64,000 nucleotides of DNA, from positions 6,768 to 70,767 of the forward strand of contig WQYD01000004.1 of the NCBI GenBank assembly GCA_009781445.1, in the 5' to 3' direction. A model generated the notes under the pieces. It ran no database searches. It saw only the letters and a program-made list of their open reading frames with translations, and had not been told where the DNA came from. Both the position numbers and the translations under genes were made by a program. How positions within the stretch are numbered: the stretch's first letter is position 1; every line of letters begins with the position of its first letter. This DNA is from Bacillota bacterium (GTDB lineage: Bacteria; Bacillota; Clostridia; Christensenellales; DTU072). Shown here piece by piece: positions 17,383 through 38,228 of this stretch.

Positions 17383-17575
17383 AAATATAAAATATAAAAT
17401 ATAAATTACGGAATTATTATCTTGGGATTAGGGATTAGTTGCTTGGGATTAGAGTTAATAAATCCAACATTCGTAAATCGTAAGTCGTAAGTCGTCATTA
17501 CTCTTGAGTGAGATTTAGAATCCTCAATTTATATTTCATATTTTATATTTTATATTTTTCATTAATTCTGAATTA
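17383..17575. repeat. Mosaic hairpin element: (AAATATA)n, (GGGATTA)n, (CGTAAGT)n, core 17506, (TATTTTA)n; paralog of 39343-39597
   Basis: About 190 nt, nearly collinear with the element downstream of dnaN. Confidence 0.85.
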
Positions 17576-18172: not shown

Positions 18173-19072
18173 CTAACTTTTGCTTGCGTTGTCAAGGAAA
18201 TAGGAATAGCTACTTAGCGTTATCATTTCATTCACATCTTCAAATAGATAATTTGTGTATTCCTCGCTTGCGGAAGCCGTGTCCACATCTGTGAGGTAAA
18301 GAATGTTTAGGCTTAAATCGTCATAGCTAAATTTTGAAATCTGCTTGGATAAAAATTTAGAAAGCGCATCGCAATAGTCTGCACTTTTAACCCCTTTGAA
18401 GTTTGAAAACAATTTTTTTGCGTTTTCGTGAAGCCCTTGTTGGGCGGAATATAGCACTTCTTCAGGCCCGTCCGACATTAAGATAATTCCCTTAAGCTCC
18501 TTAAATTCCCCCGTGATTAGCCTTAGGTGTTTTTCCGCATCTGCCCCTGTTATGAAAAAAGTTATATTGGGCGCACCGCCGTTTTCGGGGGCAGATAGCA
18601 CTCTTAAAGAACCCTGCGCGCCCTCACTCATAAGCGCGCCGATAACCCCGTCCCCGATATGCCCTAAAAACAATTTTTCGCCCTTCACCGCCACGAACAA
18701 AAGCGTGCAGGGAAGTTCGGTGATACTCTCACCTTTTGCCACCTTTTTTGCTATTGCGGTTTGCACACGGCTAACTATTTCTTTCTTTAAATCCGCCATG
18801 TCTTTTTGGTATTCGGCATCTGTTTTTAGCCCTGATTCGGCACGCATATAGTAGCTGTCAAATTCAGTTGCCATAAGTTCGCAAATAGCCAAAACCGCCT
18901 CTTCCGCACCTGCCTCAGAACGCGGTTTTGAACCTGCCCCGTCTGCAAGCGAAATGGCGTGTACGCCACCCTTTTTCACATATGCAATCCTGTCTTGGCA
19001 GGGCTTATTTCTTTCCTTATGTTCCTTGCCGAGTACCACTGCGCCTGCTTGAATCCACTTCTTAATTATCAT
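18173..19072 (-). CDS. PP2C-family (PP2C_2-type) protein phosphatase-like protein
   Basis: N-terminal CQDRIAY...AISLADGAGS and HIGDG motifs. Its start overlaps the vWA stop (ATGA). Confidence 0.75.
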   Translation of the reverse strand: MIIKKWIQAGAVVLGKEHKERNKPCQDRIAYVKKGGVHAISLADGAGSKPRSEAGAEEAVLAICELMATEFDSYYMRAESGLKTDAEYQKDMADLKKEIVSRVQTAIAKKVAKGESITELPCTLLFVAVKGEKLFLGHIGDGVIGALMSEGAQGSLRVLSAPENGGAPNITFFITGADAEKHLRLITGEFKELKGIILMSDGPEEVLYSAQQGLHENAKKLFSNFKGVKSADYCDALSKFLSKQISKFSYDDLSLNILYLTDVDTASASEEYTNYLFEDVNEMITLSSYSYFLDNASKS

Positions 19073-19725
19073 AATTTTGCAAACCCCTCTAAGCCCTTTT
19101 TATCAAACCTCACACCCCTATTCGGCTGTGTGGTTATGCGGATTTTTCCCGCCTCATAAACCCATTTTAAGAATGCGTCCGCACTCATTTCTTTAAGCAC
19201 AAGCGCCCGTTTGTTTATGCTTATCGGTTCAATTTTCACGGCTACTGAATCACTTAAAAGAAAGGGCATATACAAGAGTTTCCCTGCCTCGTCCCATTCC
19301 TTTAATTTGTCCGCAGTCTTGGAAACATCGTCCACGGAATGCCCGTCCGTAAGTATAAAAAGCCAAGGCTTATAGCTGTCCTCACCAAGTTTAATTAGCT
19401 TTCTTTTTCTTGCCGAAATTCCTTGCAAGGATAGTTCAATCGCCTCAGATAAAAACGGCGCGCGCCCCTGCTTAATGGGTTCAGAAACCTCATCGGTAAA
19501 CTTCTTAACAGTCTTTGATTTCGGGGTGTCAAACACGGTAAGCTGTAATTCAATGTAATCACTCAGCCCCTCATTCTTAATGCTTTCCGTAAGCGAATTG
19601 AAACTTGCGATAAAATTATTTACCTTAAGCCCTTGGGTAGAAAAGCTGTTGTCAAGAACAAAAGCTATCAGCAGTTTTAAGTTTTTGTTTATGTCGTCAA
19701 TCATATGTTTTTTAGTTTCCTTCAC
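19069..19725 (-). CDS. von Willebrand factor A domain protein (TerY-like)
   Basis: MIDAS DxSxS motif (VLDNSFS) and LFILTDGHS. GTG at 19725, or ATG at 19704 preceded by GAAGGA. Confidence 0.8.
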   Translation of the reverse strand: MKETKKHMIDDINKNLKLLIAFVLDNSFSTQGLKVNNFIASFNSLTESIKNEGLSDYIELQLTVFDTPKSKTVKKFTDEVSEPIKQGRAPFLSEAIELSLQGISARKRKLIKLGEDSYKPWLFILTDGHSVDDVSKTADKLKEWDEAGKLLYMPFLLSDSVAVKIEPISINKRALVLKEMSADAFLKWVYEAGKIRITTQPNRGVRFDKKGLEGFAKL

Positions 19726-21205
19726 TGTGCGCTGTGCGTTGTGCGTTGTGCATTGCGCAGAATGAATTCTGCGCCAATCTTTCCCTCTCTATCCTATAAA
19801 TTATCGGTAGCATTTCTTTTTGTTCCAAGAGGTTTTTCATATGTTTTTCATATGTTTCTTGATCTTGAAGCGCGCTTAAAAGTGCGTTTAAAAGCTGTAC
19901 GCCTTTGATATTTAAGTGCGTTTTATACTCAGCTGAGAGGGCTAATAATTTGCCCTTGTCTATCAAATTTAAAGCCTCTTCACATATGTTTTTTGCCCCT
20001 GAGAACCTTAAAATGTTTTTTGAAAATTCGCCGAAAAGTTCTTGATTTTCGTCCTGCGCTTTTCTGTAAGCGGTTTCAATTTTTTCAAAATTTCCCTCAA
20101 GATTTTGGTTTTTATAAATTGATAAAATGCTGTGATCAGGCGCGCCACCGCGCTTGTAATAATGGTATAAAATCAAAAGCATATTTTCATATTTCACCGA
20201 AATATCCCCAAGTAAAAGTTCTGTTGAAAGTATTGCTTTAAAGGATTCAAGCGCGCGGTATTCCGAATTCGGCGCGCAGGAATTAAGCGCGAAATTTATT
20301 GCGCCAATGTGTTCCACCGATAAAAATCCCATAATATAATTTAGGCTTTCCGTGGCGGAATGTGAAAGCATTTTAGAAAGAAGCCTGCCAAGTTCGCGCT
20401 TATCCAGCTTATCAAAAACTTCTTTGGGGTAATTTAAAAAGCCGTTATTTTCAATGCTTTCTTCCACTGCCCTATTCAATGCTTCGTCACATTTTTCCTC
20501 TACGCCAACCACAAGGCGCGCTAAATTTTCTTCTAAGATTTTTGGCGGTTCGCTTGGAAAAGGTTCTGCCTTTTCACCTCTTAAATGCTTTTTAAATTCC
20601 TCATTAAATCTTAAAATTTCAAGTTCGCCGTAGCACAAAATAAGTTTCTTTTGTTCGTCAAGTTCTTTAAAAACTTCATTAAAAAGTTCGTCCGCCACAG
20701 CACTATTCGGCTTAACGCTTAAGTAATTATCCCACCTTTTAAGCCTCTCTCTTGAGGCTTCTCTCTCACTTGCGAACTTGTTAAAAATCCTTTCGTATTC
20801 GCCCAAAACTTCCCCAAGCGCGCCCCTTTCAATCTTAGAAAAATAATCCTTAAATCCAAGAATTCCGCGCTTTAATTTTCCGCGTGTAAGCGTTAAAAAA
20901 AGTTCCGCACCCACCGCAAGAATCACAGGCGCAATAGCCAAAAGATAAATTAGCGTAACGGGTGAAAGGCAGGAAATCACCACGCAAAAAATGCTGTACA
21001 GCGCAAAGATTGCTGAGAGAATTAAAAACAAAATATCCCTTGGCGGATTGAATAATTTTGCCTTTTGTTTGAAGGTATGATAGCTAACTTCGTTTCTTTT
21101 TAACAGGGGAATTTCTCTTAAAGCGCAGTACGCAAACAGCCCCGTCCCAAACACGAAAAGGGCGATAACAAAGTATAAGGTGTTCGTTTCAAAGAAGGTT
21201 ATCAT
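19712..21205 (-). CDS. Membrane-anchored helical protein, function unknown
   Basis: 497 aa: three N-terminal TM helices, then a long predicted helical cytoplasmic part. Its start overlaps the upstream stop (ATGA, 21202-21205). The last ~15 codons are encoded by a (CAGCGCA)n repeat module. Confidence 0.75.
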   Translation of the reverse strand: MITFFETNTLYFVIALFVFGTGLFAYCALREIPLLKRNEVSYHTFKQKAKLFNPPRDILFLILSAIFALYSIFCVVISCLSPVTLIYLLAIAPVILAVGAELFLTLTRGKLKRGILGFKDYFSKIERGALGEVLGEYERIFNKFASEREASRERLKRWDNYLSVKPNSAVADELFNEVFKELDEQKKLILCYGELEILRFNEEFKKHLRGEKAEPFPSEPPKILEENLARLVVGVEEKCDEALNRAVEESIENNGFLNYPKEVFDKLDKRELGRLLSKMLSHSATESLNYIMGFLSVEHIGAINFALNSCAPNSEYRALESFKAILSTELLLGDISVKYENMLLILYHYYKRGGAPDHSILSIYKNQNLEGNFEKIETAYRKAQDENQELFGEFSKNILRFSGAKNICEEALNLIDKGKLLALSAEYKTHLNIKGVQLLNALLSALQDQETYEKHMKNLLEQKEMLPIIYRIERERLAQNSFCAMHNAQRTAHSEGN

Positions 21206-23024: not shown

Positions 23025-24245
23025 CTACGCAATCATCAATGCGGGCGCGCCTTTGCTATTGTTTTCCACAGGCACAGGCTTTTCCGCCTTAAATCCCATA
23101 CTGCCGTCCTCACCCACGAAAAACACAATGTTGCCGTGGCGGTTGGTGCGGTAGGTTACCGCGCCTGCGTTGAACAAACGGTTCATAACAGGGGACGCAG
23201 GGTGCGCGTATCCGTTCTGTTCGCCCACGGTTATAACCGCGTAACCAATGCTATCAAAGAAATCTATAAAGCTTTGTTGCGAAGCCGAACTTGCGCCGTG
23301 GTGCGAAACCTTTAAAAGATCTATATCTTTACCGCGTGAGTATTTTGCCATGAACGCATTTTCCGCCTGCGTTTCCGCATCGCCTGCAAGTAGCACGCGC
23401 CTGCCCGCATATTCTATTGTTACCATTAAGGAAAGATTGTTGCTTGAGTGTCCGCTAAATCCATAGCCCGCGCCAAAGATATCCACCGTGTAGTCAGACT
23501 GTGCGCCGAAGATATCTTTAAAGTCCGCACCGCTTTCGCCAACCCAAATAGCCTCGCCCACATTTCCGCCTGCCTTATCCGCCTCGCTTTTAATTTTGTC
23601 ATTTAGGTACAAAGACCCCGTAGAGGAATTCACGCTTGGCGCATCGTTTGCATAAACCGTTCCGATTGAGTAAGTATCCACCACCGTCCACAGCATATTA
23701 ATATGATCCGCATCAGGGTGCGTAACCACAAGATAGTCAATATGATTGCCGTCTAAATTACTGCTTAGATAATTCATATACTTGTTTCGCGTGGCACTCG
23801 GCACGGTGTTTCCGCCCGCCGTGTGGTAATAGTTATGCGCCGTCCCGCTTGCGTATACCCCTTGCGTGCCTGCATCAATCAGCATGGTTTTCTCATCGCC
23901 GAATTTAACAAGCATGGCATCGCCTTGGTTAACATCAATAAAATGAATCTCAAGCCCGATAGCCTCTAAATCAAAATCTATAAGATCCGCCACGCTATAG
24001 TTCGGCGCGTGGTTCTTTTCACATATGCCGTTGTGTTCTTTCTCACACACCTCTAAGCCATTTCCGCCTGTGAGCAATTCTCTGAATTCATTGCTGAACA
24101 CCCCCACAATAAGCACCGAAGCAATAATGATTGCCACCGCAATTATAACCGCACCCCAAAGCGTAATGGGCTTTTTGGGTTGCTGTGTTTTGCTTCCACC
24201 GCTTGGGCGTTTTGCTGTTTGTTTTTGTTTCTGCATATGTTTCAC
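23025..24245 (-). CDS. Membrane-anchored MBL-fold hydrolase, ComEC C-terminal-domain-like
   Basis: N-terminal TM helix. FIDVNQGDAMLV, VVTHPDADHI and LKVSHHGASS motifs of the ComEC/Rec2 beta-lactamase-like domain. Confidence 0.8.
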   Translation of the reverse strand: MKHMQKQKQTAKRPSGGSKTQQPKKPITLWGAVIIAVAIIIASVLIVGVFSNEFRELLTGGNGLEVCEKEHNGICEKNHAPNYSVADLIDFDLEAIGLEIHFIDVNQGDAMLVKFGDEKTMLIDAGTQGVYASGTAHNYYHTAGGNTVPSATRNKYMNYLSSNLDGNHIDYLVVTHPDADHINMLWTVVDTYSIGTVYANDAPSVNSSTGSLYLNDKIKSEADKAGGNVGEAIWVGESGADFKDIFGAQSDYTVDIFGAGYGFSGHSSNNLSLMVTIEYAGRRVLLAGDAETQAENAFMAKYSRGKDIDLLKVSHHGASSASQQSFIDFFDSIGYAVITVGEQNGYAHPASPVMNRLFNAGAVTYRTNRHGNIVFFVGEDGSMGFKAEKPVPVENNSKGAPALMIA

Positions 24246-24330
24246 CTTTATTCCTTATATAATTTTTAAGTTAAATCCAATCCGTTAGCCCAAGTTAGCC
24301 TAAGCCTTTCACCTCAGCTTTACACCTCTC

Positions 24331-24443
24331 ACATATGTTTTGCGCCTACCAAAATATATGCCACTTTTCCGCCAATACATATGTTTTCATTCACTCTAAA
24401 CATATGTTTTCCGTTCGGCAATACATATGTTTTCATATGTTTC
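24331..24443. promoter_or_regulatory. Iteron-like array of five ACATATGTTTT(C) direct repeats upstream of the ComEC-like gene
   Basis: Copies at 24331, 24377, 24400, 24423 and 24433. The middle three are phased 23 nt apart. AAACATATGTTT is itself a palindrome. Confidence 0.6.
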
Positions 24444-24575
24444 GCAGGGGGGTTAAAGCGAACCGCCTCAAGCACGAAACCAAACTTCTCACCGCGCCTA
24501 CCACATTCATATGTGCATTACGGGGTACTAAAATTGTAACATATTTTTTGCCCTTTTTCCACCATAAAAATAAAC

Positions 24576-25066
24576 CTTGTGAAGTCGCGTGTTGAAGTGC
24601 GCTATGGCGCGTGAAGACGCTACGCTTGTGAAGACGCAAACAAGTTTGCTTATGAAGTCGCTTCGCTTGTGAAGAGTTGCTTCGCAACATGAAGGAAGTT
24701 TATATTTAATAATCCGCCATGCAGGCTTGCCTGCACTTCATGCGCCGTACAGGCGCACTTCACAAGCGTGCAACGCACGCGACTTCATAAGGCGCAAGCC
24801 GTCTTCACAAGTGAACGCAGTGAACGGCTTCATAAGCAAACTACTTGTTTGCGTCTTCACAAGGCGTAGCCGTCTTCACAAGCGTAGCGTCTTCACGCGC
24901 CAAAGGCGCACTTCACAAGCGTGCAACGCACGCGTCTCATACCTTAATGCGGAACGCCCACATATAATCCACCATGCAGGCTTGCCTGCACTTCATGCGC
25001 CGTACAGGCGCACTTCACAAGCGTGCAACGCACGCGACTTCATAAGGCGCAAGCCGTCTTCACAAG
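24576..25066. repeat. Two adjacent family-B hairpin elements (cores TAATCCGCCATGCAGGCTTGCCTGC at ~24711 and TAATCCACCATGCAGGCTTGCCTGC at ~24966; arms built from CTTGTGAAG / CTTCACAAG / CTTCATAAG words)
   Basis: Long reverse-complementary arms. A block of more than 100 nt (CCATGCAGGCTTGCCTGCACTTCATGCGCCGTACAGGCGCACTTCACAAGCGTGCAACGCACGCGACTTCATAAGGCGCAAGCCGTCTTCACAAG) is present twice. Confidence 0.8.
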
Positions 25067-25160
25067 CAAACTTCCTTGCGTCCTCAAGCGTCCTTTCTAT
25101 GCAACAAAAACTTTCCCCGCAATCTTTCAGCGTAACTCAATTCGCCACTTCTTAGCAACT

Positions 25161-25188
25161 TAATAAAAGAACATTTGTTCTTTTATTA
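25161..25188. promoter_or_regulatory. Perfect 13-bp inverted repeat with 2-nt spacer, containing AGAACATTTGTTCT (GAAC-N4-GTTC, SOS/Cheo-box-like)
   Basis: TAATAAAAGAACA-TT-TGTTCTTTTATTA. Confidence 0.6.
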
Positions 25189-25393
25189 AGTTTCACACAT
25201 TGTGTTGCGTGGGGCGGTTGTGCCTGCTTGCTTCGCTATCGGCAAGCGAATAAACCCCTTCGCATAGCCCACCTTCCGTTCCGCGTTTGTGCGGTTTACC
25301 GCGCTGTCCCACTGTAGATACCTGCCCTTTAAGCGTGCTGTTTCTTCGCCTTATCGCGCGCTATCGCCCCACCCAAGCCACTATCGCAACCAC

Positions 25394-25409
25394 TGTTTCA
25401 CATGGAACA
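25394..25409. promoter_or_regulatory. parS-like palindrome (variant centre)
   Basis: TGTTTCACATGGAACA versus parS TGTTNCACGTGAAACA / its complement TGTTTCACGTGNAACA; it differs at the central CG (CA here). Confidence 0.55.
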
Positions 25410-25887
25410 TTCTGCATATGTTGCTAATTTCCCGCGCATTATGCCATATCTGCCCCAACCGCTTGCCACTGCATATGTGTGGCACTATTTGCAGATTCCG
25501 CGCCCTCGCCCCTGAATCCGCCATACTGCGCCGTGCGTTGCGCGCTGGTTCACGGCAATCCGCCGTGCTTCCCCTATTCTGCTTCGCCATAGCCATACCG
25601 CCATTAAATGCGCGTTCGCCCCATTTGTCCGCGGTATCAGCGCACTTTTCTGCAATAGTGCGTGGTAGTTGCACGCTATTACTGCCCTGCGTTAATCCCT
25701 GCGTACCGCATTACTTTACCGCATAATACCGCGCTGTTGCGCCAATCTTTCCCCTATCTTCGGCTATTTCGCAAGTCCTGCGTGGTGTATTCCCGCCTAT
25801 TCGCCCACTTGCCTTATGCTTGCAAACCTAATACAATTTGCGTTGATTTGCGGATTTTACGGTGGTTTTCGCCCCAAAATAGCGCAA

Positions 25888-25903
25888 TGTTTCATGTGAA
25901 ACA
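25888..25903. promoter_or_regulatory. parS-like palindrome (variant centre), embedded in a ~35-nt extended palindrome (25878-25912)
   Basis: TGTTTCATGTGAAACA, one mismatch from TGTTTCACGTGAAACA. Flanked by AATAGCG ... CGCTATT. Confidence 0.6.
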
Positions 25904-25981
25904 TACGCTATTGTCCGTACAAAATGCGCCACTCTAATGGCGCGATATCTGCGAAAAATGCCATGCTATTCGCTATTTACA

Positions 25982-25994
25982 CGAACATATGTTC
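25982..25994. promoter_or_regulatory. SOS-box-like palindrome CGAACATATGTTC
   Basis: Matches the Gram-positive LexA (Cheo box) consensus CGAACN4GTTCG in 13 of 14 positions. Confidence 0.5.
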
Positions 25995-26531
25995 TTATAA
26001 CTTGTGTATTGAACCGCGTGCGCCATGCCCTAACCACTGCACGCTTACACGCATTCTTGGGCAATTATATCTTGATTTTGCAAATTCGCCTGCCGAAAGC
26101 ACTCTATTTGCGCGGTAAACCAATACCAAACAAATGCGCTTTTGCCACCGATTCTTCTACAAATAAACCACTAAGCGTTGGCTCATAGTGCGCAGTGCGT
26201 TAGCTTCTAGCGCACCGCGTACGCCGTGCCTCGTGCCTTTTACCGATATTGTTTTGGGCAAATATTGGTTTTGCTTGGCGTATGGACTGCGTGCGTTTCT
26301 GCATAGATTTGCAAGAAATCACGCCAAGCTGTGGGCGCGGTTTTACCACTCAGCAATCCTGCAACGCTTCGCCAACAGCGCAAGAATGCGCAATTTGCGC
26401 TTAACGCAAGTAATTGTTCCGTGCAATTCTAATCACAATATTGCGTGATGATATTTGAGTAAATAGTTCCGAATTTCCTCACACCAATATAAGTGTGTTA
26501 TTTTGTTCTGTTTTACGCGATTGCTTGCCAA

Positions 26532-26563
26532 TGTTTCACATGAAACATTGCGAACATATGTTC
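26532..26563. promoter_or_regulatory. Composite site: parS-like TGTTTCACATGAAACA (26532-26547) immediately followed by SOS-box-like CGAACATATGTTC (26551-26563)
   Basis: The 33-nt block ATGTTTCACATGAAACATTGCGAACATATGTTC is repeated with 3 changes at 27206-27238. Confidence 0.6.
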
Positions 26564-27206
26564 TTTTAGCGAAAAGCGTATCTTTTGCGTGTTTTTCAGC
26601 ACCAAGCCACGAAAGTAAGCATAGAATGGAACGCGTGTTCGTTTTATGTAAGTATACTTGCCGTGGGCGCGAAACGGTTGCCGTTCGCCAATTTCAGGCA
26701 AAAATGAGAGATTTTTGGGCAGAGATTGGACGGGGAAATATATGACTTTTTTACCGCCGTAAAAGTGCAGAATTTTTGGTTTTGGCGCGGTTCAAAGCAG
26801 TTTGGCGGTTCGCACTCTAAATTTTAAGGAATTGCTTTTGCGAAGTGAGAGGGCGGATAATTTACGCCACTGCGTGGCTGAATTTAGTGCAAATAGCAGT
26901 GGAATTTCGTGGATTGCTTTGATTTCTGTGAAATTTGCGGATATTCTGCGCCATTGCGTGGCGAAATATTGCCGAATAGGGCAAAACGAACAAAAAGCGA
27001 ACAAGCGTTTTCGGCACAATGGTAAATCGTGGTTGGTTTTAGCTTGCTTGCCCCAACTTTGGGATATTTTTTGCATTAGATATGCAATTTTTATAGCAAT
27101 TTTTGATATTTGCTTGCAGTCTTGCAAAATTTCGCGTATTTTCACTGAAATTTGCTTAGTTTTTGTGTGCAATTTGGTGTATTTTTCATTTTTGTGAAAT
27201 ATGCTA

Positions 27207-27238
27207 TGTTTCACATGAAACAATGCGAACATTTGTGC
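27207..27238. promoter_or_regulatory. Composite site: parS-like TGTTTCACATGAAACA (27207-27222) plus degenerate box CGAACATTTGTGC (27226-27238)
   Basis: Paralog of the 26531-26563 block. Confidence 0.6.
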
Positions 27239-27999
27239 TATTTAACAAATGGAACATATGTGTGTTTATTTTGGGTAAAATTTTAGGTGGGTAAAAATGT
27301 GCTAAAAATTAGGGAAAAACGGGTAAAAAGCAGATAAATTTGGGTAAAAAGCAGATAAATTTGGGTAAAAATCAGGCGGGAAGTGTGATAATTAGCAAAA
27401 GCAAGGGGAAAATTGGGGGTAAAGTACGGCAAATAGGGCGAAATCGGGGCTATTCGCGGACATTTTCACCACCATGGCAGTGGTTTTACCTCAGATTTGG
27501 CTACTTTCGCCTAAGTTTTCGCTTATTTCTGCCTAAAAACAGCGAAATTGGCGCGAAACTGCTTAGTTTGGTGAGGAATTTTGTGCTGAAATTTTTGGGT
27601 AGGGTTGCTGAAGGCTAAAAATGCCTTAAAAACGAATATTTGTGTGGAAATTTAGGTAAATTTTTCAAACATAAGTTTGTTTTTATGTGTGAAATTTTTG
27701 GGTAGGGTGAAAAATGCTGATTTTGCACACATTTTGGCGGATTTTATATGCAAAATCGGGCAAAATATTACCATTTTTTACTAAAATTTTACATAGAAAA
27801 TGCGCATTTTTAACCGCGTTTTGAGGCTCCAAAATTTTTGGGTAGGGTTTTAGGCTTAGAAAATTTTTGGGTGCGAAATTTAAGGAAATTTTACGCTTGA
27901 AAATTGCTTGATTCTGCGCGTTTTCTTGAGAATATGGCGAAAATCAAGCGTTTTGCTGATTGTGAAATTTTGGCTTATGTTTAACATGGAACGGAAAGA

Positions 28000-28015
28000 T
28001 GTTCCACATGAAACA
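28000..28015. promoter_or_regulatory. parS-like palindrome (variant centre)
   Basis: TGTTCCACATGAAACA equals the Bacillus-type parS TGTTCCACGTGAAACA with only the central G changed to A. A weaker copy, TGTTTAACATGGAACG, lies at 27978-27993. Confidence 0.6.
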
Positions 28016-28330
28016 GTATTTAGCCTTGAAATAGGCGGTTTTTGCGCTATTTTTGAGGTATTTACCGTGGTGTTTACGGGAAATTTATGTGCTGAAAGGC
28101 AGGCTATTTAATGTGCTTGATTTTGGGCATTTTCGTGAGTTTTTGCCCATTTTCTGCACTCGCTTAAGGCGGTTATCCGCGGTTTTGCCCTCGCTTAGCA
28201 TTTTGTATTGATATAATTAAATTTTACATTAGAATTGCCCCTAAACGCAAGGAAAAAATTGAGTAATTTTTGCTAATTTTGCGCACGGGAAAGAGGGTTT
28301 GAGGGGTGCGGGCGGAACAGTGCGCGCTTT

Positions 28331-28634
28331 GCCGTGGGTTTTACCCGCGGTTATGCAAATACTGCCCTCTGCGGGGCAGTTACGGATTGATTTAGAGTTA
28401 GCGTTTGGGATTTTGTGCTGTGCCGTGGGTTTCACCCACGGTTATGCAAATACTGCCCGCTACGGGGCAGATAAGGGATTGGGGTAAAGGTTAACCCAAG
28501 ATTGGGGCTTTAGGGCTTTGGGCTTCGCCGTGGGTTTTACCCAAGGCTCAAGCAAATTCTGCCCCTTTGGGGCAGTTGAGGATTAAACTATCCAATAATG
28601 AGATTTAGAATCCTCAATTCTGCATTCTGAATTA
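28331..28634. repeat. Three tandem copies (starts 28331, 28422, 28527) of a two-hairpin unit GCCGTGGGTTTYACCCRCGGTTATGCAAATACTGCCC...GGGGCAG, ending in the common core (28597) and an (ATTCTGC) arm
   Basis: Read directly. An inverted homolog lies at 49667-49743. Confidence 0.8.
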
Positions 28635-28719
28635 GTCCAAATCTGTATTGAATAATGCACCGTTCTGCATTCAGCGCGCGTGGGCGAAGTGCAAACAAAG
28701 CGAAGTAGGTTTATTTGGG

Positions 28720-29970
28720 CTAAAAACAAAGCTTTTCAAGGGCTTTTTGGTAGATTTCTTGCAGTTTTTTGAAGTTTCCAAGGGAAATGTTTTCGTCTTT
28801 GGCGTGGACTGTGGACGGTTCGCTTGGGAAAACGGGCCCGAAGGATACGCCAAGTGGCAGGACGCGCGCGTAAGTTGCGCCACCGATGGCAAGAGGGGTT
28901 GAGGCGGTGTCGCCCGTTACTTCGCTATAAGCGGACAAAAGCCCAAGAACAAGAGGGTGATTGGGGGGAACATATAGGGGCGGATTGTGTGCGCCCTCGC
29001 TGACGGTGCAAAAGGGCAGGGCTTCTGCAAGGCGCGCCGTTATTTCTTCTTTTTTGAATGAAACCGGGTAGCGAATATCTGTTTTTATGGTAATAGTGCC
29101 GTTTTCGGCGGAAATTACACCAAGATTTATGGTTAGCGCGCCACTTTTGCTATCGCTTAGCTTAAGATTGACGCCTTCGCCGTCTGAATTCTTTAAAGCG
29201 GAATGTAGTTTAGTTAAGTTTTCGGCTTTTTCTTCGCTAATCAATGAGGAAAGCAACTTAATTATTGCGTTTTCGCCCTCTTTAGGACGGCTACCGTGGG
29301 CGGATTTTCCGCGCGCTTCTATAGTTTTACCGCATTTTAGCGTTGCAGTCGCATAGTCGGGTACGATATTTGCCTGTTCGCCACCGCTGATATCGCGGAT
29401 TTCGGGGGGTAGGGGGAAGGATATTTTGTGGCGCAGAACGCCTTTTTCGCAATTTATTACAGGGAAATCCGAATCGGGCGAAAAGCCTAATTGTGGCATT
29501 TCTTCGGTTTCTTTGTACCGATCCATGCACTTCCAACCGCTTTCTTCATTGCAACCAAGGATAAACCTTAGGCGCATTTTGGGCTTTTTGCCACCGGCAA
29601 GAATGCGCGCCACGGCGTAAATAACTGCCACAAGAGGCCCTTTGTCGTCCTCTGCACCGCGTGCGTAAATTCTGCCGTTGTGAATCTCTGCGCCGAACGG
29701 CGGATATGTCCAACCAACCCCCGCAGGCACAGTGTCAAGGTGTGCAAGAACCCCGAACAATTCGCCCTCGCCGATTTCAGCCCAACCGCAATAGTTGTCT
29801 ATATTCTTTGTTTTAAATCCGAACCCCTTAAGCAAGTCAAGCGTGAAGTTAAGCGCGGTAGCGTTGCCCTCGCCGAACGGCATTCCTTCAAGCGGGGGCA
29901 CGGAAGAGGTGTCTATCATTAATAGCTTTCTTAGCGCGGTTACTGAGGCTTCGTAATTCGTGTTTTCCAT
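28720..29970 (-). CDS. M20-family dipeptidase (PepV/Sapep-like)
   Basis: GVLAHLDTVPAG, ARGAEDDKGPLVAV and NEESGWK motifs of M20 metallopeptidases; 416 aa. Confidence 0.85.
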   Translation of the reverse strand: MENTNYEASVTALRKLLMIDTSSVPPLEGMPFGEGNATALNFTLDLLKGFGFKTKNIDNYCGWAEIGEGELFGVLAHLDTVPAGVGWTYPPFGAEIHNGRIYARGAEDDKGPLVAVIYAVARILAGGKKPKMRLRFILGCNEESGWKCMDRYKETEEMPQLGFSPDSDFPVINCEKGVLRHKISFPLPPEIRDISGGEQANIVPDYATATLKCGKTIEARGKSAHGSRPKEGENAIIKLLSSLISEEKAENLTKLHSALKNSDGEGVNLKLSDSKSGALTINLGVISAENGTITIKTDIRYPVSFKKEEITARLAEALPFCTVSEGAHNPPLYVPPNHPLVLGLLSAYSEVTGDTASTPLAIGGATYARVLPLGVSFGPVFPSEPSTVHAKDENISLGNFKKLQEIYQKALEKLCF

Positions 29971-30306
29971 ACCATTATTGTATTACTTTTAGACAATTTT
30001 TGCTAACATATTTTTGAATTTCAAGCAATAAGTTTTAAGGAAGCAATGAATAAATAGCACGAACGATTATGAGTAGATTTTGGAAAGACAAATTTGGCAA
30101 TTTTTGACCCAAGGGCGTAGCTGGGCTACGCTTAAGGGGCGGGAATTGACGGATTTGTTCCAAAAGATACCATAAGTTTCGGGCAGTCGCAAAGCGAAGG
30201 TATTTATTCAGTGATTCCTCAATAAGCAATGTGATAGCGGATACCAAAAACCACCCTAAATCACTATCCGAAGTCAGAAATTCTGTAGCCAAAGAAACAA
30301 ACGCAT

Positions 30307-30347
30307 TGTGGATAACTATGTGGATAACTCATTATAAATGTGGATAA
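30307..30347. promoter_or_regulatory. Cluster of three perfect DnaA boxes (TGTGGATAA = complement of TTATCCACA) followed by an AT-rich stretch; candidate oriC or DnaA-regulatory site
   Basis: Boxes at 30307-30315, 30319-30327 and 30339-30347, all in the same orientation and each extended to TGTGGATAAC. AT-rich AATATGTAATATTTTGTAAAATTATGCAATTATGATA at ~30357-30395. Confidence 0.7.
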
Positions 30348-30474
30348 CTATGCGCGGAATATGTAATATTTTGTAAAATTATGCAATTATGATACCCAAA
30401 TGCGTAAAAATTTGGTGCAATTTGCCAGAAGTTTCGCAGTGTGGAATGCTGTTGCTTGTGCAACGGGGCTTAAT

Positions 30475-30632
30475 CAGCGCACAATGCACAGCGCACAATG
30501 AAGGATTCTAAATCTCACTCAAGAGTAATGACGACTTACGACTTACGATTTACGAATGGTGGATTCTAAATCTCAGTATTAGTTAATTAATTCTGAATTA
30601 AACTATACCCTATGCCCTATGCCCTATACCCT
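30475..30632. repeat. Mosaic element: (CAGCGCA)n, core 30503, (ACGACTT)n, core 30561, (AATTCTG), (CCCTATG)n
   Basis: Read directly. Confidence 0.85.
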
Positions 30633-30637
30633 TAAAT

Positions 30638-31327
30638 ATGTTTTTAATTATTCGTAAAAAATTCCTAATTCTTGCCCTCGTGGTGATACTTGCCCTCGGA
30701 ATAGCAGGGGGGACGGCTTTGGCTGTGGTTTCGTGGACAGTGCCGAAGGACGGCATAACCGTGGTTCTGGACGCAGGGCATGGCGGACGGGACGGCGGTG
30801 TTATCGGCGTAAACAGCAGGGCGAAGGAATCCGATATTAATCTTGAAATTGTGAAAATTTTGAAGGGAATGCTTGAGAGGCTGAACTATAATGTGGTGCT
30901 GACAAGGGAAACAGAGGACGATCTCGGCGCAAACAAATCAAAGGATATGTCCGCAAGAAAAAACATAATTCTTAACGCAAAGCCTCACCTTGTGGTTTCT
31001 GTGCATTGCAATAAATTTCCTGATAAAAACCGCAGAGGGGCGCAGGTGTTTTTTGACACATTTTCCGAACGGGGCGCAAGCCTTGCAAAGCTGATTCAAA
31101 CGAACCTCAACGCGGTGAACACGGCGCAGAACGGGCGCAGTTTTAACGCACTTCGCGGTGATTATTATATTTTGAAGTGTAGCCCCTTTCCATCGGCGAT
31201 AGTTGAATGCGGATTTTTATCTAACCCTGAGGACGATAAACTTTTAAATACTCACGCTTACCGCGTGGAAATTGCTGAGGGGATAGCGCGTGGCATTCAA
31301 GCATTTCTACTGAATGTGCAGGCTTAG
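30638..31327 (+). CDS. N-acetylmuramoyl-L-alanine amidase (Amidase_3; CwlD-like, membrane-anchored)
   Basis: N-terminal TM helix. VVLDAGHGGRDGG, VVSVHCN and ECGFLSN motifs. Confidence 0.85.
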   Translation: MFLIIRKKFLILALVVILALGIAGGTALAVVSWTVPKDGITVVLDAGHGGRDGGVIGVNSRAKESDINLEIVKILKGMLERLNYNVVLTRETEDDLGANKSKDMSARKNIILNAKPHLVVSVHCNKFPDKNRRGAQVFFDTFSERGASLAKLIQTNLNAVNTAQNGRSFNALRGDYYILKCSPFPSAIVECGFLSNPEDDKLLNTHAYRVEIAEGIARGIQAFLLNVQA

Positions 31328-31487
31328 CCACGCTGATGCTGTGTCAAGCCGATTTTGCCTGCGGGTCATGTACGCTTAAGTACACTCCCCTTGTCAAAAA
31401 CTTCTTTCCTTGCCTGAGCGTGGCTAAGCCTGCACATTATCAACAATTTAGTTGTGTTTTTATTGCGCCCATTTGTATTAATTTTAA

Positions 31488-31517
31488 TTGACTTTAACAA
31501 TTTAAATCCTGTATACT
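31488..31517 (+). promoter_or_regulatory. Sigma-A-type promoter upstream of rpmH
   Basis: TTGACT (31488-31493), an 18-nt spacer, then TATACT (31512-31517). Confidence 0.45.
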
Positions 31518-31565
31518 CTATAAGCTATTAAATATTAAATAATATAAGGGGCTTAGAGTTTTTAA

Positions 31566-31700
31566 ATGAAAAGAACATATCAACCAAAAAAACGCCAAAG
31601 AAGCAAGGTTCACGGCTTTCGCCAAAGAATGAAAACAAAGAACGGCAGAGCTGTTATTTCCCGCAGAAGAAGAAGGGGCAGGGCGAAGCTAACGGCGTAA
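31566..31700 (+). CDS. rpmH: 50S ribosomal protein L34 (44 aa; below the ORF-track cutoff)
   Basis: Hand translation gives [44 protein letters not shown]. Confidence 0.95.
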
Positions 31701-31704
31701 CCCT

Positions 31705-32034
31705 ATGAAAAAGGCGAACAGGCTAACTAATAACGCAAGCTTTAGCTACATTTATAAGCACGGCAAAGCGGTTCACGGCGCGGTTTTGGCGGTTCACTTT
31801 GTGGTGGCAGGTTCAATTAAAGTTGGCATAAGCGTTTCCAAAAAAATAGGAAAAAGCGTTATCCGCAGTAAGGTTAAAAGGCGCATAAAGGAAAGTTTCC
31901 GCCACATTATCCCTTTGCTTTCGGCAAAATGCAATTATGTGGTTTCCGCAAAGGAAGGTATCGCCGAAAAGGATTTTGCCTATATTGATAAAGAATTGAG
32001 GGCATTGCTGAAGAGGGTGAAACATTTAGATTAA
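31705..32034 (+). CDS. rnpA: Ribonuclease P protein component
   Basis: 109 aa, basic, immediately after rpmH. Has the typical N-terminal KKANRLTNNASFSYIYKHG. Confidence 0.9.
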   Translation: MKKANRLTNNASFSYIYKHGKAVHGAVLAVHFVVAGSIKVGISVSKKIGKSVIRSKVKRRIKESFRHIIPLLSAKCNYVVSAKEGIAEKDFAYIDKELRALLKRVKHLD

Positions 32035-32130
32035 TTCAGAATTAAGAATTCAGAATGCAGAATTAAGGATTTATTTATAATGAGATTTAGAATCCTTCCC
32101 TATGCCCTATGCCCTATAACCTATGCCCTC
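32034..32130. repeat. Mosaic element: (ATTCAGA)n, core 32079, (CCCTATG)n
   Basis: Read directly; it sits inside the rnpA-yidD operon gap. Confidence 0.85.
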
Positions 32131-32139
32131 AAATAAATC

Positions 32140-32385
32140 GTGTTCAAATATATTGCAAAACTTCTGATTATCGGTTATAAGAAAACGCTTTCACGCGTTG
32201 TGGGGAACAGTTGCGCATATACGCCCACTTGTTCCATGTACACCTATGACGCAATAAGCAAGTACGGTGCATTCGCAGGGATACTTATGGGCGCAAAGAG
32301 GATCATTAGTTGCCACCCCCGTGCAAAGGGCGGGTTTCACCCCGTAAAAGAAAATTTTAAAGGACAAGCGAAATGGGTTTTATAA
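32140..32385 (+). CDS. yidD: Membrane protein insertion efficiency factor YidD
   Basis: CAYTPTCSMYTYDAISKYG...CHPRAKGGFHPV signature. Confidence 0.9.
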   Translation: MFKYIAKLLIIGYKKTLSRVVGNSCAYTPTCSMYTYDAISKYGAFAGILMGAKRIISCHPRAKGGFHPVKENFKGQAKWVL

Positions 32386-33410
32386 TTTCCGCCACGCCGT
32401 CACTTAATTGGATCGGCAGGTTAATTTACAACAATTTATATCTCGGCTGGATAAATAACTGGGCAGGCGGAAGCACGCTTATCGGCGGTTTTGCCGTTAC
32501 GGTTATCTTTTTCACATTGTTTTTGAAAATCGCCACGCTTCCGCTTGATTTATGGCAGAAGTCCATGGGGCGCAAAAATCAAAAAAAGATGGAAATAATG
32601 AAGCCTGAACTTGACAAGCTGAACAAGCAATATGCTCAAGATAAGCAAACGCTTATGATGAAACAACGGCAGGTTCACAAGAAATATAAGTACAGTGCTT
32701 TCGGTGCGTGCTTGCCTGCAATTGTTACCATGGGAATATTTATTGTGGTTTTCACAGGGTTTAACAGTGCGGTAAGGTTTCATAATTTTAAGGAATACGA
32801 AAGGCTTGATGAAGGCTATCACACCGCTTACGCAGTGTCTTACGAAGAATCTAAGAACAGCGCAGAGGCAACTAAAGACGCGGAAAAGTGGGTTAAGGAC
32901 AACTTTAAGCCCGAAGGCTTTTTATTAACCACAAATATTTTTATGCCCGACACTTGGGCAAAAGCAATCCCCACTGCTTCGGATTTCAGCGGTTCGGGAA
33001 TCGGCAAACTTGGAATCACCGTGGATAGAACGCGCTATGAAAAAGTTATGAAACCGCTGTTTGAAGAATATAACAGCGGGGGCAAATGGAACGGCAGGTT
33101 AATTTTGCCGATATTTGCTTTCTTGCTTTCTATAGTTTCCGCAAAATTCGTAAAACCGCCCGAAATGCCCCAAATGGCAGGGCAATCCGCCGAACAGCAA
33201 AAGGCAAGCAAAGCGCAACAAAAGTTTATGGGGTATTTAATGCCCGTAATGTTTGGCGCGTTTACGCTGTTTTATAGTTCCGCTTTCGCTATTTATATGG
33301 TAATGAGTAACCTCTTTGCCACCGTCCTCGGCGTTTCTTATAACATAATAACCAAAAAGATAGACGCAAGGGAAAAGGACGCAAGGCTGTCAAACACGAT
33401 AAAAAGATAA
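32373..33410 (+). CDS. yidC: YidC/Oxa1-family membrane protein insertase
   Basis: Position after yidD. TM pattern, PLDLWQ, KYKYSAFGACLPAIVTMGIFI, and a basic C-terminus. Confidence 0.9.
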   Translation: MGFIISATPSLNWIGRLIYNNLYLGWINNWAGGSTLIGGFAVTVIFFTLFLKIATLPLDLWQKSMGRKNQKKMEIMKPELDKLNKQYAQDKQTLMMKQRQVHKKYKYSAFGACLPAIVTMGIFIVVFTGFNSAVRFHNFKEYERLDEGYHTAYAVSYEESKNSAEATKDAEKWVKDNFKPEGFLLTTNIFMPDTWAKAIPTASDFSGSGIGKLGITVDRTRYEKVMKPLFEEYNSGGKWNGRLILPIFAFLLSIVSAKFVKPPEMPQMAGQSAEQQKASKAQQKFMGYLMPVMFGAFTLFYSSAFAIYMVMSNLFATVLGVSYNIITKKIDAREKDARLSNTIKR

Positions 33411-33437
33411 TAATATTATATAAGTTTAGGAGAATTT

Positions 33438-34451
33438 ATGCCCGAATATAAAGGTTCAACAACAGAAGAAGCAAAGAAAAAAGGACTTTCCGCCCTCGGA
33501 ATAACCGAAAGCGAGGCGGATATTGAAATCACAAGCTACGGCGGGCTTTTATCAAAAGCCTCGGTTTTAATCACACCCAAGGCAGGCGCGAACGCGGTGG
33601 AAGTAAGCAAAAAAGCGGAAAGCAAAGAAGAAAGCCCCGAAAGCGCACAAGAAAAGCCCCGTGCAAAAAAGCGCGCAAGCGAACCAAAAGAAGCGGACAG
33701 TGCTGAGGAAAATTCGGATTCAGAAGAAAAGCGCGTATTCCCCACGGAAGTTCTTGAAAAGGTGGGCGGTGAGGCACTTGAGTTTTTAAGGGAAGTTCTT
33801 TGCAAAATGTATATGTCGCATTGCGATACCGAATTCAAGATTAAGGACGGCGAAATTTTGCTTGAGATTTCGGGGGATGACGCAGGTTCTCTTATCGGAC
33901 ACAGGGGCGAAACGCTTGACGCGATAAGGCACATTGTGTCCACCGTAACCACAAACGGCGAAAAAACCATGCCCCGCGTGCAGGTGGACGCGGCGCGCTA
34001 CCGTGAACGCAGGGTGGAAACTCTTACCGCACTTGCTAACAGAATGGCGCGCAAGGCGGCAAGTAGCAGAACCTCTGTGGAACTTGAACCTATGAACCCT
34101 TACGACAGGCGCACAATCCATTCCGCACTCACAGAGGACAGATTCGTGAAAACCGAATCCCGCGGTGAGGGAAAATTCCGCCATGTGGTGATAATCCCTG
34201 TGGATAGGGGCGGAAGAAACAGAGATCGCGGGGGCAGAAGAGATAACAGGGAAAGGGATAGGGATAACCGCGAGGGCGGTTTCCGTTCGGAATACACACC
34301 TAAATCTGATTTCGCGCCCAAAAGAGATACCGTTAGCGAGAATATTAACAACGAATCCGCGCCGAGAGAAATCACTTACGGTTCTTCCGATTTTTCCAAA
34401 AGAGGCCCGAATAAGATCAGAAGTTTCGGGCAAAAAGGAAGAAAGTTTTAA
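33438..34451 (+). CDS. jag: Jag/KhpB RNA-binding protein (Jag_N, KH, R3H) with an unusually long Arg/Gly/Asp-rich C-terminal tail
   Basis: Synteny after yidC. R3H region YDRRTIHSALTEDRFVKTESRGEGKFRHVVI. Tail RGGRNRDRGGRRDNRERDRDNREGGFR. Confidence 0.9.
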   Translation: MPEYKGSTTEEAKKKGLSALGITESEADIEITSYGGLLSKASVLITPKAGANAVEVSKKAESKEESPESAQEKPRAKKRASEPKEADSAEENSDSEEKRVFPTEVLEKVGGEALEFLREVLCKMYMSHCDTEFKIKDGEILLEISGDDAGSLIGHRGETLDAIRHIVSTVTTNGEKTMPRVQVDAARYRERRVETLTALANRMARKAASSRTSVELEPMNPYDRRTIHSALTEDRFVKTESRGEGKFRHVVIIPVDRGGRNRDRGGRRDNRERDRDNREGGFRSEYTPKSDFAPKRDTVSENINNESAPREITYGSSDFSKRGPNKIRSFGQKGRKF

Positions 34452-34502
34452 TTACAGAACGCAATAAATCCCTGCGGGCTTTATTAAGTTAATCTCTTTT
34501 CC

Positions 34503-35843
34503 ATGCAAAAAAAGCCAAGAACACAAACGATAGTAGCTATTGCAACCCCTGCTTCGGCGGGGGCTATCGGCATTATACGGCTTTCGGGTGAAGATAGCCT
34601 TAAAATCGCGCTTAAGGTGTTTAGGGCAAAGGGTTTTGAAAGAGGTAAGATTGAACCAAGAAGAATGTATCTTGGGGAAATAAGCGCGCAAAACTTTAAG
34701 GATAAGGCATTTTGTGTGTTTTTTAAATCCCCCGAATCTTACACGGGCGAAGATATGGTTGAGTTTCATACGCACGGCGGAACAAGCGTCTTAAAAGGGG
34801 TTCTTCGCCTCATGTGCGACATTGGCGCGCGCCCTGCAACGGCAGGCGAATTTACAAAGCGCGCGTTTTTAAACGGCAAAATGACTCTTGCCGTGGCAGA
34901 GGGCATAGAGGACATGATTAACGCGGAAAGCGAAGCCGAAGCTATGCAGGCGTATAGGCTTCTTTCGGGCGAACTTGCAGGGGGAATTAAGGACACAATT
35001 TCCTTGCTTCTTGAAGCCGTAAGCACGGTGGACGCCTCGCTTGATTACCCTGAGGAACTTTTGGAAGATATGCGCGAACCTGTTAGGCAGTGCCTTTGCG
35101 AAGCAAAAAAGAACCTTGAAGAAACCCTTAAATCCTCTTTGGTTAACCGCCATTTAAAAGACGGGGTTACCGCGGTAATCGCAGGTTTAACCAATGTGGG
35201 CAAAAGTAGCCTTTTAAACGCGCTATTAAAAGAGGATAGGGCGATTGTAACGAATATCGCAGGGACGACAAGGGATACCCTTAAAGAAGCCCTTGAAATC
35301 GGCGGGGTTAAAATCAATATTCTTGACACCGCAGGGATAAGAAACAGTACAGACGAAATTGAAAAGGAAGGAATCGCGCGCGCTAAAAAAGCCTCACAGA
35401 GTGCGGATTTAGTGCTGTTTGTTACGGATTTATCCGCCCCCGAAACCCCCGAAGAATCCGCTTTTTTTGATTCTCTTAAGGGCAAAAAGATTATTAAAAT
35501 CGGCAACAAAGGCGATATTAAAAAGTACGAAAAAGGCGAAGATATTATTGTTGAAGCGCGCGCAGGCAAAAACATTTCCGCTTTAGTAGAACTTATCAAA
35601 AACGCACTTGAGGTATCCAAAAGCGGGGAATTGGTTATCTTAACGCGCGAAAGGCATATCAAGCTAACCGAAGAGGCCTTACTAAACATTTCGCTTTCTC
35701 TTAAAAACTTTAATAATCTTACCGCGGATTTATTGTCCTCTCAAATCAAAACCGCCCACAAACTTTTATCCCAAATCACAGGCACAGACGCAAGCGAAGA
35801 AATCGTGGATAAAATTTTTAGTAGTTTTTGTGTGGGGAAATAA
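34503..35843 (+). CDS. mnmE: tRNA modification GTPase MnmE
   Basis: TIVAIATP N-terminus, G1 GLTNVGKSSLLNAL, G3 DTAGIR, C-terminal CVGK. Confidence 0.95.
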   Translation: MQKKPRTQTIVAIATPASAGAIGIIRLSGEDSLKIALKVFRAKGFERGKIEPRRMYLGEISAQNFKDKAFCVFFKSPESYTGEDMVEFHTHGGTSVLKGVLRLMCDIGARPATAGEFTKRAFLNGKMTLAVAEGIEDMINAESEAEAMQAYRLLSGELAGGIKDTISLLLEAVSTVDASLDYPEELLEDMREPVRQCLCEAKKNLEETLKSSLVNRHLKDGVTAVIAGLTNVGKSSLLNALLKEDRAIVTNIAGTTRDTLKEALEIGGVKINILDTAGIRNSTDEIEKEGIARAKKASQSADLVLFVTDLSAPETPEESAFFDSLKGKKIIKIGNKGDIKKYEKGEDIIVEARAGKNISALVELIKNALEVSKSGELVILTRERHIKLTEEALLNISLSLKNFNNLTADLLSSQIKTAHKLLSQITGTDASEEIVDKIFSSFCVGK

Positions 35844-35847
35844 TAGA

Positions 35848-36070
35848 AAGGCCATAGGCCATAGGGCAAAGGCCATAGAGTTGGATTCTAAATATAATTA
35901 TTGATAAGGCAAAAGGCGTTGGGTGAAAAATAATAGGGCAAAGGCCATAGGGTTGGATTCTAAATATAATTATTGATAAGGCAAAAGGCGTTGGGTGAAA
36001 AATAATTCGGAAAGAAGGAAGTTTTAATAATAATTCCGCCCCTATCCCCTATGCCCTATGGCCTATGGCC
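35848..36070. repeat. Mosaic element with (GGCCATA)n arms and a 72-nt tandem duplication (35864-35935 and 35936-36005), each copy carrying a degenerate core GGATTCTAAATATAATT
   Basis: The two 72-nt copies differ at about one position. The outer arms GGCCATAGGCCATAGGGC / GCCCTATGGCCTATGGCC are inverted copies. Confidence 0.85.
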
Positions 36071-36132
36071 TTTTAAACACCTTTCCCTCAATTTTTCTTG
36101 AATTCTAATCTCACTTGTTATATACTTAAACT

Positions 36133-37542: not shown

Positions 37543-37566
37543 ATTTTAAGCAGAGCTTAAAATTTA

Positions 37567-38201: not shown

Positions 38202-38228
38202 AAAAAACAATCACCAAAAAGAGGAACT

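Follow-up and report, generated by a model that had tools for sequence, protein, structure and literature searches.

What role, if any, could 4.4 kb of DNA without genes play beside the replication origin of a compact bacterial genome? The question is raised by positions 24246-28719 of the window, by which we mean the whole 64-kb stretch of contig WQYD01000004.1 analysed here, from one uncultured Clostridia species. The answer towards which we lean is that the region is probably an origin-proximal chromosomal parS (centromere) locus that has undergone expansion, with spacer DNA that is helically phased and partly curved. The evidence base comprises this origin-proximal window and a further 10 kb to its left (L018:1-10000), or 74 kb in total. 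Near-identical contigs were found in only two metagenome samples, ERZ27264051 and SRR10512954. Among the homologues of the flanking proteins in the protein collection, the closest to the MBL/ComEC-like protein is 44% identical and the closest to the M20 dipeptidase 57%, with no relatives above these values available there for the study of synteny.

Candidate parS sites and their orthologues

Six parS-like 16-mers are distributed across the region as follows:

24246-28719: gene-free region, between the MBL-fold gene and the M20 gene
25394-25409, strand undefined: parS-like 16-mer TGTTTCACATGGAACA
25888-25903, minus strand: parS-like 16-mer TGTTTCACATGAAACA, which with its flanks forms 22 nt that are the exact reverse complement of 26531-26552
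26532-26563, plus strand: composite of parS-like TGTTTCACATGAAACA, a 4-nt gap and the LexA-type box GAACATATGTTC
27207-27263, plus strand: second composite, of parS-like TGTTTCACATGAAACA and then two degenerate LexA-type boxes, GAACATTTGTGC and GAACATATGTGT
27978-28015, minus strand: parS doublet of two 16-mers (27978 and 28000) with a 6-nt spacer

The canonical parS site is TGTTTCAC-GTGAAACA (PMC7383237). Measured against the parS consensus TGTTTCACGTGAAACA, three of the six sites carry one mismatch and two carry two mismatches, with the site at 27978 carrying four. A search with TGTTTCACATGAAACA allowing up to 3 mismatches recovered 12 strand matches against 1.04 expected in the window, and these correspond to the six sites, all of them inside the region, together with a single three-mismatch chance match at 17232; the 10 kb left of the window in the same genome contain no parS-like sites. 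An earlier first-pass annotation of this DNA had counted five such palindromes, a tally that now extends to six (25394, 25888, 26532, 27207, 27978 and 28000), spaced 0.5-0.8 kb apart if the doublet is set aside.

Comparison with other genomes provides an evolutionary context for the doublet. Four other lineages possess an orthologue of the M20 protein (52-56% identical), and in each of them a parS-like doublet lies 20-80 nt downstream of the M20 stop codon, its two sites being spaced 21-23 bp start to start:

28720-29970, minus strand: M20 dipeptidase gene of the window
L010, 11374/11396: doublet downstream of M20
L007/L008, 11315/11337: doublet downstream of M20
L016, 9322/9343: doublet downstream of M20
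L005, 6290/6313: doublet downstream of M20

The window doublet aligns with all of these, with 22 invariant columns, and by this sequence comparison 27978/28000 is the ancestral doublet, homologous to those found downstream of M20 in the relatives. Further, ParB is encoded 5-10 kb from the locus in L008/L009 and in L010. The first-pass annotation had proposed, among its candidates, a centromere-like platform for ParB loading, and this proposal is supported by the orthologous doublets in four lineages, with ParB nearby in two of them. The sites, which are candidates by sequence, combine a match to the parS consensus, an origin-proximal location (see below) and orthologous conservation, and origin-proximal parS clusters are a known kind of element. 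A scan of genome contigs for relatives yielded three distant loci, and a metagenome scan with the doublet pattern recovered the L010 genome alone once more.

Synteny is kept in that the doublet remains downstream of M20 in these relatives; the intergenic region itself varies in size, measuring 0.32 kb in L007 and L010, 0.54 kb in L016, 1.17 kb in L005 and 4.4 kb in the window. It holds two to four parS-like sites in the relatives (three in L016, and three to four degenerate ones in L005), as against six in the window. The region in L005, the closest relative, lies at 6211-7387 (= L014 9303-10473) between M20 and dnaN, and is likewise gene-free; it is 70% pyrimidine (T/C-rich), contains ~100-bp direct repeats, is bounded by parS-like sites and has no helical periodicity.

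All six sites in the window read CACATG in place of CACGTG at their centre, i.e., they join one CAC half to one CAT half. The tetranucleotide ACGT occurs once in the window against 146 expected, and strong depletion is also seen for TCGA (2/101 observed/expected) and CTAG (2/61), followed by CCGG (23/206), GGCC (32/199) and GATC (68/146), with GGWCC absent altogether; the extra 10 kb contain zero ACGT. Avoidance of short palindromes to this extreme suggests heavy restriction-modification pressure, and the exclusion of ACGT most likely reflects restriction avoidance. The CACATG centre is common to all sites because the genome excludes ACGT, which is part of canonical parS. In L005, the nearest relative, ACGT occurs 2 times against 26 expected, with one of its two copies located inside its parS. 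The locus would hence represent a natural example of restriction-site avoidance clashing with an essential DNA-binding site, wherein parS has been rewritten from CACGTG to CACATG. As separate observations, L005 also avoids GGCC and GATC, and the window contains a type II restriction-modification pair at 2073-3895, namely a C-5 cytosine methyltransferase gene and, after it, the gene for an Eco47II-family restriction endonuclease.

The position of the region relative to the origin can be read from the DNA to the right of the M20 gene:

30307-30347, minus strand: trio of perfect DnaA boxes, spaced 12 and 20 bp, outside the region
Right of the trio: amidase, rnpA, yidC, jag and trmE, then dnaA at 36133 and dnaN at 38187

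The DnaA-box trio and the dnaA gene therefore make the region origin-proximal, in agreement with the origin-adjacent position claimed for it earlier, and the trio sits 2.3 kb from the parS doublet 27978/28000. The trio is likely an oriC box cluster, although dnaA lies elsewhere. A trio of the same kind (TGTGGATAA), with identical 12- and 20-bp spacing, is kept upstream of the amidase gene in L005 (3243-3275), whose M20 is 56% identical to that of the window. Gene order near the origin differs from both L005 and L014. Across window positions 28720-46452 it is rearranged relative to the closest relative (L014/L015), in which M20 is followed by convergent dnaN-dnaA and then by DAO/Pyr_redox/FGGY genes; in the window dnaA-dnaN come after trmE, and the M20 gene faces the non-coding island.

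This rearrangement bears on the main rival explanation, considerably less probable in our estimate than the centromere account, namely that the DNA is mostly neutral. On this account the ancestral doublet alone is the centromere, and the rest consists of tolerated, non-functional DNA, i.e., short-period satellite DNA generated by slippage, dispersed repeat insertions and copied parS/LexA-like palindromes situated at an origin-near rearrangement breakpoint. The altered gene order is in line with such an origin, as is the richness of the genome in dispersed intergenic repeats, of which both edges of the region are built. Against it, three of the parS copies are 100% identical over 16-22 nt, one of them in inverted orientation, despite flanks that cannot be aligned; this confinement of similarity to the site itself argues for site conservation and not for recent segmental duplication. 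The notion that the inter-parS segments are mutual diverged duplicates was considered separately and rejected, as local alignment scores are near shuffle level.

Helical phasing of the spacer DNA

Kilobase-scale helical phasing, together with predicted curvature, is the most unusual property of the region; the first-pass annotation had overlooked it, as it had the cause of the common CACATG centre. The phasing is carried by two blocks, the second of which includes a short tandem repeat:

25220-26364: left phased block, period 11.0 bp, coherent over ~104 periods
26836-27886: right phased block, period 10.4 bp, coherent over ~100 periods
27321-27375, plus strand: 21-bp tandem GGGTAAAAAGCAGATAAATTT, 2.6 copies

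Periodicity was measured on an indicator of GC versus AT at each position and is expressed as normalised spectral power, which reaches 41.8 at 11.0 bp (25200-26400) and 42.9 at 10.4 bp (26800-28000). Dinucleotide shuffles attain a power of at most 13.1, or 21.2 in a set without the 21-bp tandem, and 457 background windows from the genome and its relatives attain at most 18.1; when the tandem is left out the observed power stays at 40.7. The ten best of 317 windows of 600 bp across the 64 kb all fall in the region, and the phase is held within roughly +/-45-60 degrees over the ~100 periods of each block. Outside the region, the strongest GC/AT periodicity is found at 18400-21200 (11.2-11.4 bp, power 15-18), in the genes for a VWA-domain protein and a 497-aa hypothetical protein, where it may reflect amphipathic protein helices.

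The two blocks are compositionally distinct. On the top strand of the left block 4-5 T-rich positions alternate with 5-6 C/G-rich positions, the strand being C- and T-rich overall with a GC skew of about -0.23 and a GC content of 0.49-0.56, versus ~0.43 for the window. The top strand of the right block is G- and T-rich, with a GC skew of about +0.3 and phased A/T tracts, such that the skew is mirrored between the blocks and switches near 26450. G far outnumbers A or T at the GC-rich phases, and each unit holds little sequence information. Coherence over ~100 periods at very low per-position information, combined with the G excess at the GC-rich phases, is unlike the simple decay of one ancestral unit and hence counts against the neutral explanation. 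The distances between sites point the same way, being near whole block periods (494 = 44.9 x 11.0, 814 = 74.0 x 11.0 and 675 = 64.9 x 10.4), although they are suggestive only, because the pairs were picked after the fact. A search for enrichment of parS half-sites in the phased blocks gave no convincing result. In favour of neutrality, an independent metagenome assembly (L001) has one 21-bp unit fewer (27321-27341) as its sole difference over 15 kb, which can be taken as ongoing slippage. The same indel indicates that the blocks appear to change length by slippage in multiples of the helical repeat.

Curvature was predicted with a dinucleotide wedge model. The model identifies 26950-27650 as the most curved DNA of the 64 kb, with a predicted ratio of end-to-end distance to contour length of 0.15-0.38 versus a median of 0.93, and the right block, with its A/T tracts in helix phase and its predicted curved path, has the attributes of curved phased A-tract DNA. 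The possibility that the left block is curved if underwound was examined by scaling the twist to 11 bp per turn, and set aside as this had no clear effect. Our literature search on phased or curved DNA at parS returned nothing directly relevant. At 27597-27847, there are also three co-oriented copies of TGAAATTTTTGGGTAGGGT (one with CAAAA for TGAAA), spaced 103 and 140 bp; these contain GGGTAGGG, which matches the E. coli FtsK-orienting polar sequence (KOPS) pattern GGGNAGGG. KOPS-like GGGNAGGG occurs 13 times across the window against 4.4 expected, with an uninformative distribution.

The strand switch at the centre is also the starting point of two further explanations. The first of these is that divergent transcription from a centre near 26450 yields one or more structured non-coding RNAs, whether large or small, in keeping with the G-rich strand being directed outward on both sides of it, a GC content in the left block that is above that of the genome and the hairpin modules at the right edge. 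However, periodicity at 10.4-11.0 bp speaks for a feature of the DNA duplex, and sliding-window fold z-scores are mostly -2 to +0.5 in the core, being strong only at the palindromic and hairpin repeats. Further, the covariance models of Rfam 15 at gathering score have no match anywhere in the window, and those at E<=5 in 24000-30700 amount to two chance-level matches with E above 1; a search for tRNA and transfer-messenger RNA found none, and no homologous sequence was found for covariation analysis. The cluster of non-coding RNAs that the first-pass annotation had entertained is hence very unlikely. The second explanation is that the region forms part of the replication origin, either as an auxiliary element or as the true point of fork divergence. 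The GC skew flips from about -0.25 to +0.33 at ~26450, the genes to the left are encoded on the minus strand and those to the right mostly on the plus strand, and curved DNA is common near origins. Yet no DnaA box, even with one mismatch, occurs between 23062 and 30307, which leaves the region without any, its nearest cluster being the conserved trio of perfect boxes, and dnaA-dnaN are located at 36-39 kb. Moreover, the centre is not an AT-rich unwinding element, the GC skew exceeds that of the flanking genes, and the AT skew does not flip. We regard an origin function as a very remote prospect.

LexA-type boxes, edge repeats and coding potential

Two of the parS-like sites are accompanied by LexA-type boxes, as listed above, and further palindromes of this type stand elsewhere in the region:

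25157-25192: perfect 36-bp palindrome (17-nt arms, 2-nt centre) centred on GAACATTTGTTC
25983-25994: LexA (Cheo)-type box cGAACATATGTTCt

All four perfect GAAC-N4-GTTC sites of the window fall in the region, at 25169, 25983, 26552 and 26629, which bears out their earlier description as a feature of it, and two of the four read cGAACATATGTTCt. For two of the LexA-type boxes the distance to a parS site is 4 bp, with the box on the same side in each pair, and two boxes match 13 of the 14 positions of CGAACATATGTTCG, the B. subtilis LexA consensus. These palindromes raise the alternative of an SOS-controlled non-coding locus, in which LexA represses non-coding RNAs or blocks the sliding of ParB, and DNA damage alters centromere behaviour. 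In its favour, apart from the clustering of the four sites, the repeated cGAACATATGTTCt, the 36-bp palindrome and the pairing with parS, the boxes fit the consensus GAAC-N4-GTTC/T described for Bacillus and Clostridia, and in C. difficile a LexA box has been predicted upstream of soj (PMC4234289). On the other hand, the boxes have no gene downstream, promoter-like matches are at chance level (12 versus 12.1 expected) with no convincing promoter overlapping any box, the orthologous regions of the relatives lack such boxes, and there is no lexA gene in the available sequence. Additionally, the ATAT spacer and extended flanks that the boxes share suggest that one palindrome was copied, as opposed to independent operators having arisen. 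An SOS-controlled locus is therefore unlikely, and the idea that LexA acts as a regulator or halts the sliding of ParB is put forward as a hypothesis only. The literature on LexA boxes at parS offered nothing directly relevant.

The two edges of the region have a different make-up:

23025-24236, minus strand: MBL-fold (MBL/ComEC-like) gene
24331-24445, strand undefined: iteron-like array of 4-5 copies of ACATATGTTTT, spacing 46/23/23/10 bp
24575-25090: GTGAAG/CTTCAC inverted-repeat element in roughly two copies, with a direct repeat of 108 nt
28326-28581, minus strand: two-hairpin module in three tandem copies, resembling a terminator on the sense strand of M20
28590-28665: dispersed repeat like the repetitive extragenic palindromes (REP), with similar copies in many intergenic regions of the window

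The ACATATGTTTT array lies 95-210 bp upstream of the start of the MBL/ComEC-like gene (24236), and ACATATGTTTT is a degenerate half of the GAACATATGTTC palindrome; 7 of the 8 window copies of ACATATGT also fall in the region. The array was considered as an iteron-type plasmid origin or copy-control element on account of its 23-bp phasing, and rejected as there is no rep gene, DnaA box or plasmid similarity. The GTGAAG/CTTCAC element belongs to a dispersed family with a further copy at 51799-51997, and metagenome assemblies break at 24575-25090. A related copy of the two-hairpin module is found at 49669-49747, downstream of another gene and in the same relative orientation. The repeat features enumerated in the first-pass annotation, including the iteron-like array and the triple two-hairpin tandem, are all present in the region; however, its hairpin and repeat blocks are in part not specific to this locus, as those at 24575-25090 and 28326-28665 are families found elsewhere in the window. 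Both edges are made up of unrelated dispersed repeats and terminator-like modules, and it is the core, ~25100-28300, that is the distinctive part of the region.

More generally, dispersed repeat families of 40-150 nt, similar to REP or to miniature inverted-repeat transposable elements (MITEs), fill many intergenic regions of the window, and metagenome assemblies break there; examples are 1832-1934, 8153-8324, 14432-14503, 17383-17536, 30503-30599, 37564-37747, 39434-39508, 44792-44911, 55527-55607, 56186-56284 and 61115-61272. The trmE-dnaA intergenic region holds two tandem ~73-nt copies that are 98.6% identical (35861-36006). Upstream of the second GTGAAG/CTTCAC copy, two small adjacent open reading frames (ORFs) of 84 and 76 aa (51300-51786) might be a toxin-antitoxin pair.

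The description of the region as ~4.4 kb free of ORFs holds up. Its longest ORF with an ATG, GTG or TTG start is 146 aa, codon periodicity is absent (period-3 power 0.1-0.7, versus 6.5-21 in neighbouring genes), and hidden coding through stop-codon reassignment was rejected, as reassigning any single stop codon opened no long frame in the region. A six-frame Pfam search of the region gave no match, and all open segments of 60 aa or longer, joined into one query, found no homologue among 5.8 billion proteins, these protein-level searches thereby detecting no gene remnants. The accompanying claim that all other intergenic gaps of the window are under ~0.7 kb has to be revised, since elsewhere up to ~1.0-1.1 kb can pass with no ORF of 150 aa or more, and one such stretch of 2.2 kb holds rpsF, ssb and rpsR. 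The same results bear on a further reading, that of a decayed mobile element, as suggested at first pass, or else of a prophage remnant or a series of pseudogenes. The MITE-like or REP-like dispersed repeats at the edges agree with it, and they are the sole part of the region to do so; a blastn search in distant mode against phages and plasmids found no match to the region, and the Pfam, protein and periodicity tests were negative as noted above. This reading is already largely refuted, and we consider it scarcely credible.

The centromere account and known systems

Taken as a whole, these results can be accommodated by the expansion of a parS locus along the following lines. The ancestor would have had a parS doublet immediately after the M20 gene, within ~0.3 kb of intergenic DNA, and in the lineage of the window this locus would have grown to 4.4 kb, gene-free and with six parS-like sites. 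We infer that these sites serve for the loading of ParB dimers, which then spread across a platform free of transcription to form one dense partition complex near oriC. The phased blocks would grow by slippage in multiples of the helical repeat, and their phase may be maintained because it helps to shape or compact the partition-complex DNA, which would give the phased DNA an architectural role.

Several observations weigh against this account. No parB gene is present in the 74 kb of this genome that were covered, and the departure from the canonical parS centre extends to every site. The LexA-type boxes and the ACATATGTTTT array fall outside it. The curvature prediction, which uses wedge angles after Bolshoy and co-workers, is approximate, and it is confined to the right block, the left block being periodic yet with no curvature predicted. 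Further, none of the relatives examined, including L005 with its 1.17-kb region, shows helical phasing, and with the phased blocks absent from the relatives they could be a neutral satellite-like expansion. A more elaborate version of the centromere account may also be envisaged, in which the region is a bacterial 'regional centromere', i.e., a multi-parS array set in phased satellite-like DNA that changes length in helical-repeat steps and is selected to curve or wrap the partition complex, with LexA operators coupling the SOS response to ParB spreading or SMC loading; this is speculative and rather improbable.

A chromosomal parS site is usually regarded as a single point of 16 bp. A dedicated gene-free island such as this one, in which several sites follow a lattice of helical repeats and ~2.2 kb of DNA is coherent in phase and predicted in part to be curved, would prompt the question of whether bacterial centromeres, like the satellite centromeres of eukaryotes, depend on the physical properties of their DNA, and the pairing of parS with LexA-type boxes suggests a possible link between DNA damage and segregation. 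Should the phased DNA prove to be neutral satellite, it would still illustrate the size that such expansions may attain in a compact genome. Our literature search found no description of a gene-free parS island with kilobase-scale phase-coherent DNA, ACGT-free parS and adjacent LexA-type boxes.

The nearest known systems are the chromosomal parS clusters of B. subtilis, Caulobacter, Corynebacterium and Myxococcus. These are alike in their 16-bp palindromes, from which the present ones differ by one central change, and in having several sites within a few kb of oriC; likewise, the position of the locus is conserved in relatives, two of which encode ParB nearby. However, chromosomal parS sites usually lie within or between ordinary genes, whereas here all sites are found in a single 4.4-kb gene-free island, every site reads CACATG in a genome from which ACGT is excluded, the DNA around the sites is helically phased and in part curved by prediction, and LexA-type boxes abut two of them. 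The boxes share the GAAC-N4-GTTC core of the Firmicutes LexA (Cheo) boxes (PMC4234289), but they lie outside any gene promoter and are absent from the orthologous regions of the relatives.

A second comparison is offered by plasmid centromere arrays. The sopC of F consists of 12 43-bp repeats and the parC of R1 of 11-bp iterons, and such arrays resemble the present locus in placing partition sites on a lattice of helical-repeat multiples in non-coding DNA. In contrast to them, the sites here are 0.5-0.8 kb apart, a scale about ten times larger, the units are degenerate, with a compositional periodicity instead of sequence repeats, and the replicon is chromosomal, as dnaA, dnaN, rnpA, yidC, jag and trmE are present. 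Finally, the blocks are comparable to phased A-tract and nucleosome-positioning DNA with its 10-11 bp period, sharing the alternation of AT and GC once per helical turn, and 210-bp pieces of the right block would follow almost circular paths according to the wedge model. Unlike such DNA, each block here maintains ~100 consecutive periods, which is far longer and more coherent, and the blocks come as a pair with periods of 11.0 and 10.4 bp and mirrored strand bias, in an organism for which no wrapping protein is known.

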